From assembly GCF_024298765.1 (NCBI RefSeq), contig NZ_CP101210.1: DNA of 64,000 nt; one strand, given 5' to 3'. Source of the stretch: Escherichia coli. GTDB lineage: Bacteria; Pseudomonadota; Gammaproteobacteria; Enterobacterales; Enterobacteriaceae. Within the stretch, counting starts at the first letter, position 1, and every line of letters begins with the position of its first letter. Below are positions 1,108 through 2,417 of this stretch, piece by piece. Both the position numbers and the translations under genes were made by a program. The notes under the pieces were generated by a model. That model saw only the letters and a program-made list of their open reading frames with translations. It made no database searches and had not been told where the DNA came from.

Positions 1108-1157
1108 TGACCCGTCCTGAATAGCGTTGACACGTTCCTGACTTAAATCCGGAGAAC

Positions 1158-1561
1158 GTGATGATGACTGAGTTCAAACGCACCCAACGTGATTATCCTC
1201 TATCCTTTAAAATAGCTGTTGTTGAGCAGGTTGAAAAAGGCGAGATGACCTATAAACAGGCCCAGCAGCGGTATGGCATTCAGGGGCGCTCCACCGTTCT
1301 TGTCTGGTTACGTAAATTGGCCGGCTTGACTGGAGTCCTGGACTTCCTGACCTGGTGAAGAGGAAACTGCCTGTGACTCAGACAACTATCCCGCTCACAC
1401 CCGAGCAAAGAATCAGGGAACTTGAAGCGCAGCTTGAGCTGGCGAACCAGAAAGCTGAGTTTTTTGAGTCAGTTATCAATGTCCTTAAAAATGATTACGG
1501 GGTGAGTATCGTAAAAAAGCGGCCCGGCAAGTCCTCGCGCAAAGTCCGGCCCCCAAAATAA
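1158..1561 (+). pseudogene. IS3-family OrfA (HTH + leucine-zipper transposase subunit), apparently frame-disrupted: the HTH part (1158-1358) and the coiled-coil part (open from 1316 to 1561) are in different frames
   Basis: ORF1 carries the HTH (TYKQAQQRYGIQGRSTVLVWLRKL); the next frame carries LTPEQRIRELEAQLELANQKAEFF; joining them needs a 1-nt shift somewhere in 1316-1358. Confidence 0.6.
1513..1519 (+). promoter_or_regulatory. Programmed -1 ribosomal frameshift slippery heptamer A-AAA-AAG linking the OrfA and OrfB frames
   Basis: AAAAAAG at 1513-1519 lies in the OrfA frame (..SIVKK..) just before its stop; the OrfB frame is open from here to 2169. Confidence 0.7.
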
Positions 1562-1563
1562 CT

Positions 1564-2414
1564 GTGACGCGTGCATGTCTGTTCCTGGGACACAGCAGAC
1601 AGGCATGGTATCAGGACAACACAAGGCGCAGAAAACGGCAGGAACATCATGCTCAGGTTCTTGATTTTGTTGCCCGTGTCAGATGTCGTCAGCCCCGAAT
1701 CGGTGCGCGTAAGCTGCACTATCTGCTGAACACTCAGGCCGATAAAAGGCTGAATATCGGGCGAGACCGCCTGTTTAACCTGCTCGATGAATACCGACTC
1801 CTGGTGCCAGTAAAACGGGCATATCACAAAACTACCAACAGTCATCATCGCTTCTACCGACATCCAAACCTGCTTAAACCAGGCCCTGAACAGGTTACCG
1901 CTCTTGAACCAGAACAGGTCTGGGTCGCCGATATTACTTACCTTCCACTGCGCAATGGTACGGCCTATCTGAGTCTGGTCACCGATGCCTGCTCCAGAAA
2001 AATTATGGGCTACCATGTTGGGGAAAACCTGCAGACAGAAAATGTGGTAAAAGCGTTCAGACAGGCGCTGAGGCTGAGAAAAACGACGAGTCCCCTGGTG
2101 CATCATTCTGACAGGGGCTGCAATACTGTTCAGCGCTCTATCAGTCAGTTCATGAAAGAAATGGAATAACCTGTTCAATGACGGATGGTTATGACTGCTA
2201 CCAGAACGCACTGGCTGAGCGAATAAACGGTATCCTGAAAGATGAGTTTTTACTCTCGCGTCCTGCAGACCTGGCGCAGGCCCGGGAAATGGTCAAAGAG
2301 TCCGTGGCAATTTATAACCATGAGCGGCCACATCTGGCTCTGAAATACAAAACGCCCGATGACGTTCATCAGGCGTTTTACAGACAGAAAAGTGTCAACT
2401 TATATCAGGACTAG
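1564..2414 (+). pseudogene. IS3-family OrfB transposase (DDE catalytic domain), split by an apparent +1 frameshift in a G-run near 2114-2120 into 1564-2169 and 2178-2414
   Basis: Frame 1 gives ...WVADITYLP...LVTDACSRKIMGYHV...HHSDRG then KEME-stop; frame 0 continues QYCSALYQSVHERNGITCSMTDGYDCYQNALAERINGILKDE...YNHERPHLALKYKTPDDV, the expected collinear C-terminal transposase motifs. Confidence 0.6.
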
Positions 2415-2417
2415 TCA

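Follow-up and report, generated by a model that had tools for sequence, protein, structure and literature searches.

We propose that two single-base deletions that break the transposase reading frames of an insertion sequence (IS) in Escherichia coli are probably, though far from certainly, local errors in the source assembly and not traces of real decay. The element, an ISSen1-like member of the IS3 family, lies near the left end of a stretch of 64,000 nucleotides of contig NZ_CP101210.1 (assembly GCF_024298765.1), referred to herein as the window, where it sits behind a tRNA-Ser gene and its tandem RtT-like repeats. An earlier note on this DNA had described the element as having intact ends and disrupted OrfA and OrfB frames, and as probably being unable to transpose on its own. 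The disruptions are present in the sequence as written, and our assessment of their origin comes from comparing the window with closely related genomes, in which the same insertion is intact. The comparison of many insertion sites also leads us to suggest, more tentatively, that elements of this type select their targets by position relative to transcription terminators.

Disruption of the Transposase Reading Frames

When the window element is aligned to the copy at the same locus in strain 104, 1310 of 1312 positions match, the two 1-bp deletions are the sole differences, there are zero substitutions, and restoring both bases yields an identical sequence. In its intact form the element encodes OrfA, a protein of 133 residues that starts at ATG 1161 and contains a helix-turn-helix (HTH), and OrfAB, a protein of 418 residues reached via a -1 slip on the heptamer A-AAA-AAG, and intact copies are annotated by the Prokaryotic Genome Annotation Pipeline (PGAP) with a 'programmed frameshift' (two overlapping open reading frames, ORFs, in -1 phase). 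The repaired OrfAB scores 315.4 bits against the NCBIfam model NF033516 (IS3 family transposase; cutoff 160) and matches the Pfam domains rve (77.5 bits), rve_3 (72.1 bits) and HTH_28 (26.8 bits), the last of these covering residues 16-54 of the intact protein. Its catalytic Asp-Asp-Glu (DDE) triad is of the DD(35)E type and consists of D258 (in WVADITY), D318 (in HHSDRG) and E354 (in NALAERING), with 35 residues separating D318 and E354.

The two deletions affect different parts of this protein. With the first, translation from ATG 1161 terminates at a stop codon at 1356-1358, and as OrfA ends after 65 residues, ribosomes never arrive at the slippery site in phase. The second, in which a run of five G residues (G5) is shortened to four (G4) just after HHSDRG, places E354 out of frame and splits it from D318. 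The separated parts are still recognizable, since the window ORF of 201 residues that represents part of OrfB scores 65.4 bits against rve and the ORF of 78 residues that represents the C-terminal part scores 68 bits against rve_3. The remainder of OrfA beyond the first deletion also includes a heptad-like leucine/hydrophobic segment (within 1318-1561) that is a possible leucine zipper. Taken as written, the window copy cannot make either OrfA or the OrfAB transposase.

These results bear out the frame analysis of the earlier note, which had placed the frameshift heptamer at 1513-1519 (it is in phase with the OrfA frame), a split in OrfA near 1316-1358 (an A is missing between 1317 and 1318) and a frame change of OrfB in a G-run near 2114-2120 (G4 vs. 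G5, past the second Asp of the triad and before its Glu). Intact copies have the normal two-ORF layout and not the four-ORF structure of the window, so the claim of disruption stands.

Origin of the Two Deletions

The whole window was compared with two sister genomes, 2009C-3133 and strain 104, and the differences are very unevenly distributed. Relative to 2009C-3133, positions 1-2417 contain six insertion or deletion (indel) events and one single-nucleotide polymorphism (SNP), vs. zero indels and five SNPs in positions 2418-64000, and relative to strain 104, over window positions 1048-49246, there are three indels, all at or before 2113, together with three SNPs. All six indel events and the one SNP (884) thus cluster within the 1.6 kb between 539 and 2113, and the other 61.6 kb is free of indels. 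Five of the six events are changes in homopolymer length, namely A7 in the window vs. A6 in 2009C-3133 at 539, T8 vs. T9 at 915, C5 vs. C7 at 1047, T7 vs. T8 at 1094 and G4 vs. G5 at 2113, and the sixth is the A missing at 1317. None of the 252 homopolymer runs of at least five bases in 2418-64000 differs, and only one SNP (29038) in the 61.6 kb is absent from both comparison genomes. A mutator strain was considered as a source of the changes and rejected, given the clean remainder of the window with 0/252 homopolymer runs altered.

Among 5426 complete E. coli genomes, positions 480-1107 have no exact match (the best are 99.1-99.3% identical), at least 20 genomes score identically against this segment and apparently represent one common state, and the sister genomes listed agree with each other at all of these positions. 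For the adjoining segment 2418-14000, at least 25 genomes are reported to match at 100.0% identity from end to end. A 70-bp query for the first deletion gave no full-coverage match above 98.6%, the value equivalent to one gap, in the same 5426 genomes, and the product of the truncated OrfA, taken with three alternative starts, has no record in the gene-position collection. The 68-residue ORF downstream of it is on record in two short contigs, where the alignment reveals other lesions and not the deletion of the window. Likewise, the four-ORF pattern was not found beside the DUF2726 gene in the sampled assemblies (24/2780 index blocks), in most of which the IS is intact.

The affected stretch is repeated DNA throughout, comprising a tRNA gene, RtT units (at a median of three places per genome) and a multi-copy IS, and such regions are presumably closed, in most assemblies, with few, low-redundancy or PCR-derived reads. 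The confinement of the private indels to the repeat-rich segment 539-2113 points to local sequencing or assembly error, and we consider it rather probable that both deletions arose in this way. Provided that they did, the real element would be the intact 1312-bp copy. There are several points that weigh against such an interpretation. The change from G5 to G4 occurs naturally and so could be real here too, IS copies do decay, and selection does not act against indels that fall in non-coding homopolymers or in an IS the host can dispense with, which partly explains why they cluster. Moreover, the case for error is made from the comparison of assembled genomes. In public data, a compensating pair of homopolymer indels (+C/-C) is present in the copy of the IS behind tRNA-Ser in L127 (GCA_964046445.1), and six gapped bases are present in the same copy in L110 (Logan SRR22784463), which indicates that assembly-level frameshifts of this element do occur.

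The natural occurrence of G4 bears on the alternative that both deletions are real and recent. A 71-bp query across the second deletion retrieved 267 matching records, of which 91 score 99% or more, and the G4 allele is 100% identical in at least 15 records, at other loci. These include a copy behind tRNA-Leu next to secG in strain APEC O2-211 and, in two strains, copies that lie within an integrase gene close to a tRNA-Asp gene. The three G4 copies that were inspected have two sequence backgrounds unlike that of the window, and all are annotated as 'frameshifted', and G4 alleles occur on at least three backgrounds in all (L006, L007 and L008 together with the window). The G5 run of orfB (codons AGG GGG; AGA GGA in ISSen1) is a recurrent frameshift hotspot.

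If both deletions were real, the IS would be truly decayed and non-autonomous, with ends that could at most be mobilized by the transposase of another copy. The deletions are indeed present in the sequence and destroy both OrfA and OrfAB, the G-run is a proven natural hotspot where G4 has appeared on three backgrounds in copies that, where inspected, are annotated as frameshifted pseudogenes, public data contain further damaged copies from this locus (L127, L110, and L111), and the intact copy that sister genomes have behind tRNA-Pro next to eptB could supply transposase. However, real decay needs about seven private changes in 1.6 kb vs. a single private SNP in the other 61.6 kb, the deleted A lies outside any homopolymer and its loss is absent from every other genome checked, and the listed sister genomes are uniform at all of the affected positions. 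Hence we regard real decay of this copy as unlikely.

A mixed origin, in which slippage or gene conversion over a short tract produced a real G4 and both the lost A and the flanking changes in homopolymer length are errors, appears quite improbable. Strain APEC O2-211 has the same insertion behind tRNA-Ser and also the G4 copy behind tRNA-Leu, a potential donor, and exchange between IS copies has a likely precedent in L124 (CM142786.1), where the copy behind tRNA-Ser has three SNPs at its right end that suggest gene conversion. Two of these are shared with the tRNA-Leu copy and with L003, the copy on the F plasmid, and the mapping of the third is approximate. The window copy, however, is without the SNPs that flank G4 in the tRNA-Leu copy (1717 and 2241), so that any conversion would be confined to a tract of less than about 520 bp, and there is no positive evidence for such a tract. 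On account of the missing donor SNPs, an origin from the tRNA-Leu G4 copy, as a chimera or by gene conversion, was rejected as the principal explanation and is retained here only as this minor rival. Local assembly error for both deletions therefore remains the reading that we prefer, and the proposal of the earlier note that the copy probably cannot transpose alone is upheld for the sequence as written but, given the cluster of private indels, is less secure as a statement about real decay.

Consequences for Autonomy and Mobilization

Should the deletions be real, the copy would be non-autonomous, as neither OrfA nor OrfAB would be made. The window IS has exactly the ends of intact copies, and behind the tRNA-Pro gene next to eptB an intact copy is present in sister genomes, which together make mobilization in trans conceivable and plausible. 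Work on IS911 reportedly indicates that IS3-family transposases act preferentially in cis, and mobilization in trans would be expected to be inefficient. The intact element is predicted to produce OrfA and OrfAB from its two overlapping frames by -1 ribosomal slippage and, by analogy with the rest of the family, would transpose by a copy-out/paste-in route through a circular intermediate.

In itself the finding is of little consequence, as frameshifted IS copies are routine and this IS is common in E. coli. It does, however, advise caution in calling pseudogenes, since to term this element decayed from a single assembly is unsafe where the frameshifts fall within a patch of private indels in repeats.

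Identity and Boundaries of the Element

The boundaries of the element emerge when it is aligned with full-length copies from five other loci, whose flanks are unrelated, and its length is 1310 bp in the window and 1311-1312 bp in copies elsewhere. It begins with TGACCCGT and finishes with ACTAGTCA, giving TG...CA termini, and its inverted repeats are imperfect, with the blocks TGAC, GTCCTGA and GTTGACAC in common across about 45 nt. The model match, the alignment of the repeats and the boundaries agree with the assignment in the earlier note of an IS3-family element with intact terminal inverted repeats. Its claim that an ATA duplication rebuilds a repeat unit is also correct, since excising the IS and one ATA regenerates CGTATATTGCAC, the same sequence as in the uninterrupted units at 744-755 and 925-936. 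Perfect 3-bp target duplications are found at all eight E. coli and Salmonella loci examined (8/8). Both the length (1310/1312 bp) and the duplication (ATA) lie within the ranges for the IS3 family, which are 1.2-1.55 kb and 3-4 bp, respectively.

The element is also widespread, as a megablast search with the 1310-bp sequence has matches in 1010 of the 5426 complete E. coli genomes, with a hit spanning 80% or more of the query in 250 of these. The best matches are 1312 bp in length, 99.8% identical and annotated as 'IS3 family transposase', and most sister genomes have the IS at three places. Hence, by its sequence, the element is a known and ordinary IS3-family insertion sequence and a close relative of ISSen1.

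Target Preference Downstream of Terminators

The sites at which these elements are found have a feature in common that may reflect how targets are chosen. Upstream flanks were taken from E. coli and plasmid loci, from a scan of one genome per species with the exact 31-nt left end (12 loci, in Klebsiella, Tatumella, Pantoea and an enterobacterium) and from a scan of metagenome contigs with the exact 26-nt left end (82 loci), giving 80 distinct upstream flanks. Under the strict rule used for scoring, the stem has to measure 5 bp or more and to end in G or C, the loop has to span 3-10 nt, and a T-tract has to follow. At 56 of the sites the flank GC content is no more than 0.60. A naive stem finder and a distance derived from RNAfold were tried and set aside in favor of the strict rule, as their results were scattered and they counted A-run:T-run and outer pairings. 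An automatic terminator scan placed these hairpins on the minus strand alone and was likewise set aside.

In 37 of these 56 sites a hairpin stem ends 13-15 nt ahead of the IS, counted to its first base, with a distance of 14 nt in 22, 13 nt in 10 and 15 nt in five of them, and about nine further sites are terminators by eye that the strict rule missed. As a control, every position of the window was tested on both strands in the same way, and 0.12% pass. The preference is also evident in the base counts before the IS, with G at -17 in 39/53, C at -15 in 40/53, T at -13 to -9 in 43-50/53 and T at -6 in 37/53, which correspond to a consensus of GGC-TTTTTT at -17 to -9, and the three duplicated bases show no bias. 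It is always the left end of the IS that points toward the terminator, such that the transposase gene is co-directional with the terminated transcript. In the window the distance from stem to IS is 13 nt and in sister genomes it is 14 nt, the difference being due to the T7 run of the window where the sister genomes have T8.

There are exceptions, one inside an integrase gene (L007) and another between lsrD and lsrB (L014), and the E. coli copy L011 lies 14 nt after a hairpin that resembles a repetitive extragenic palindromic (REP) element. The 26-nt end is shared by 24 high-GC metagenome contigs (flank GC >0.60), only one of which (1/24) has the terminator association; the interiors of these IS do not match the reference by default blastn (megablast), and they were treated as different relatives. 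L035, L041, L044-L050, L053, and L099 are among these high-GC loci, and in L053 and L099 a terminator is located 14 nt from the opposite end.

On this basis we tentatively suggest, although the odds may lie slightly against it, that ISSen1-like elements choose their targets by structure and position, 14 nt (13-15) past a terminator hairpin and co-oriented with it, and that they represent an undescribed specificity class among DDE transposons. Such a preference, if true, would explain why the element collects behind the terminators of tRNA-Ser, tRNA-Pro, tRNA-Leu and RtT. The transposase or the transpososome may recognize GGC-T6 beside a palindrome, either as sequence (GGCTTTTTT) or as an extruded hairpin, or it might instead recognize something that is linked to transcription termination. 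A plausible benefit would be a site at which no host gene is harmed and where the IS is shielded from read-through transcription. A search of the full-text literature brought up no report that ISSen1 or the IS3 family targets terminators, with ISfinder and subscription literature outside the search, and hence the novelty of the preference is uncertain. If confirmed and undescribed, it would offer a tractable system in which to study the recognition of a DNA structure, or of a termination site, by a DDE transposase.

Genomic Context

The coordinates of the element and its surroundings are given in Table 1. Upstream of the IS are ghrA, on the minus strand, and the tRNA-Ser gene, followed by RtT-like units, each of which carries a copy of the 3' end of the tRNA and a terminator hairpin. 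The Rfam RtT model (RF00391) matches at 746-882 with 46.3 bits (gathering score 45), and PGAP annotates 'RtT sRNA' (small RNA) features at equivalent places in sister genomes. The IS interrupts the third unit directly after its terminator, and the 41-nt remainder of the unit beyond the IS is 100% identical to 746-786 and 927-967. The predicted fold of the 57 nt upstream of the IS has an energy of -19.7 kcal/mol.

The same insertion, intact, is present in strains 104, 2009C-3133, 13P477T and others, and the three named strains share with the window both the ATA junction and the order ghrA, tRNA-Ser, RtT units, IS, DUF2726 gene, phoH. Many E. coli genomes that are near-identical to the window over the adjacent DNA also carry the insertion intact. 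Strains differ in how many RtT units precede the IS, with no extra units in strain 104 and two in both the window and 2009C-3133. The IS copy behind the tRNA-Pro gene next to eptB likewise has RtT units on its flanks. We take the combination of tRNA-Ser and tandem RtT units to resemble the tyrT-rtT arrangement.

The immediate right-hand neighbor of the IS, in the interval that separates the tRNA-Ser gene from phoH, is a gene with a DUF2726 domain (2465-3151, minus strand). The genes that K-12 has in this interval are presumably different and far more numerous, and the interval from tRNA-Ser to phoH may be a junction at a tRNA gene that varies among strains. Elsewhere in the window, tandem repeats of about 101 bp, with units that are about 96% identical, were seen as offset BLAST hits at 25894-26237 in the cbpM-torD intergenic region and are probably an array of the REP type or of the related bacterial interspersed mosaic elements (BIME).

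Table 1. Features of the insertion sequence and its surroundings in the window.
Feature	Position	Strand	Evidence or remark
tRNA-Ser(GGA) gene, probably serX	614-701	+	ARAGORN; Rfam tRNA 53.8 bits; annotated in sister genomes
181-bp tandem repeat, 2.4 RtT-like units	683-1108	+	Tandem Repeats Finder (TRF) and repeat search
Terminator-like hairpin and T7 run	1075-1101	+	Stem 1075-1082/1087-1094, loop GAAA, T7 at 1095-1101
Left ATA of the 3-bp target duplication	1105-1107
ISSen1-like IS3-family insertion sequence	1108-2417	+	1310 bp here; intact form 1312 bp
Left inverted repeat (IRL), begins TG	1108-1152	+	IRL/IRR alignment
Truncated OrfA' (65 residues and stop)	1161-1358	+	First 52 residues native (HTH region), last 13 out of frame
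First 1-bp deletion (A of AAATATGG lost; AAATTGG in the window)	between 1317 and 1318	+	Alignment to intact copy
Remaining OrfA coding sequence in another frame, including the slippery site	1318-1561	+
A-AAA-AAG heptamer for programmed -1 frameshift	1513-1519	+	X XXY YYZ phase of the OrfA frame
OrfB frame to premature stop	1519-2169	+	Carries D258 and D318; stop at 2167-2169
Second 1-bp deletion (G4 where intact copies have G5)	2114-2117	+	Alignment to intact copy
C-terminal third of the transposase, out of frame	2118-2414	+	Carries E354
Right inverted repeat (IRR), finishes CA	2373-2417	+	IRL/IRR alignment
Right ATA of the target duplication (2418-2420) and rest of the interrupted RtT-like unit	2418-2458	+

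Comparison With Known Systems

The nearest named relative is ISSen1, represented by a copy on a Salmonella plasmid that PGAP labels 'IS3-like element ISSen1 family transposase'. It is 1312 bp in length, has the same first 31 bp and shares the ORF layout, the slippery site and the 3-bp duplications with the window element, and in the one ISSen1-labelled copy examined the IS is found 7 nt after a T7 run. The two differ in that the E. coli form is named only 'IS3 family transposase' by PGAP and has the AGG GGG codons in place of AGA GGA. By the ISfinder convention, copies are the same IS or isoforms above 95% protein and/or 90% DNA identity. The values here are 91.1% for DNA and 94.3% for OrfAB, which is borderline and refers to the PGAP-labelled copy rather than to the ISfinder reference.

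With IS911 and IS3 the element shares the overlap of orfA and orfB in -1 phase, the A-AAA-AAG heptamer, the DD(35)E triad, the TG...CA ends and the 3-bp duplications. It differs from them in that the OrfA of the window lineage matches HTH_28 and is not of the Transposase_8 type, and in its strong target preference, and we know of no comparable preference described for IS911 or IS3.

Other IS3-family elements do select particular extragenic sites, as IS1397 and ISKpn1 insert inside REP palindromes, a specificity that has been attributed to the transposase (PMC1525189). The window lineage resembles these two in family and in having palindromic, hairpin-forming extragenic targets. In contrast to them, however, it inserts about 14 nt beyond the stem, past the T-tract and in one orientation, and its targets are terminators rather than REPs.

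A parallel of a different kind comes from the class C group II introns of bacteria, which Robart, Seo and Zimmerly are said to have described in 2007 as inserting after intrinsic terminators. In both cases the element comes to lie at a fixed short distance past a terminator stem-loop, co-oriented with it and sparing host genes. The routes are distinct, with ribonucleoprotein retrohoming in the introns vs. DDE transposition in the IS, and the resemblance is in outcome only.

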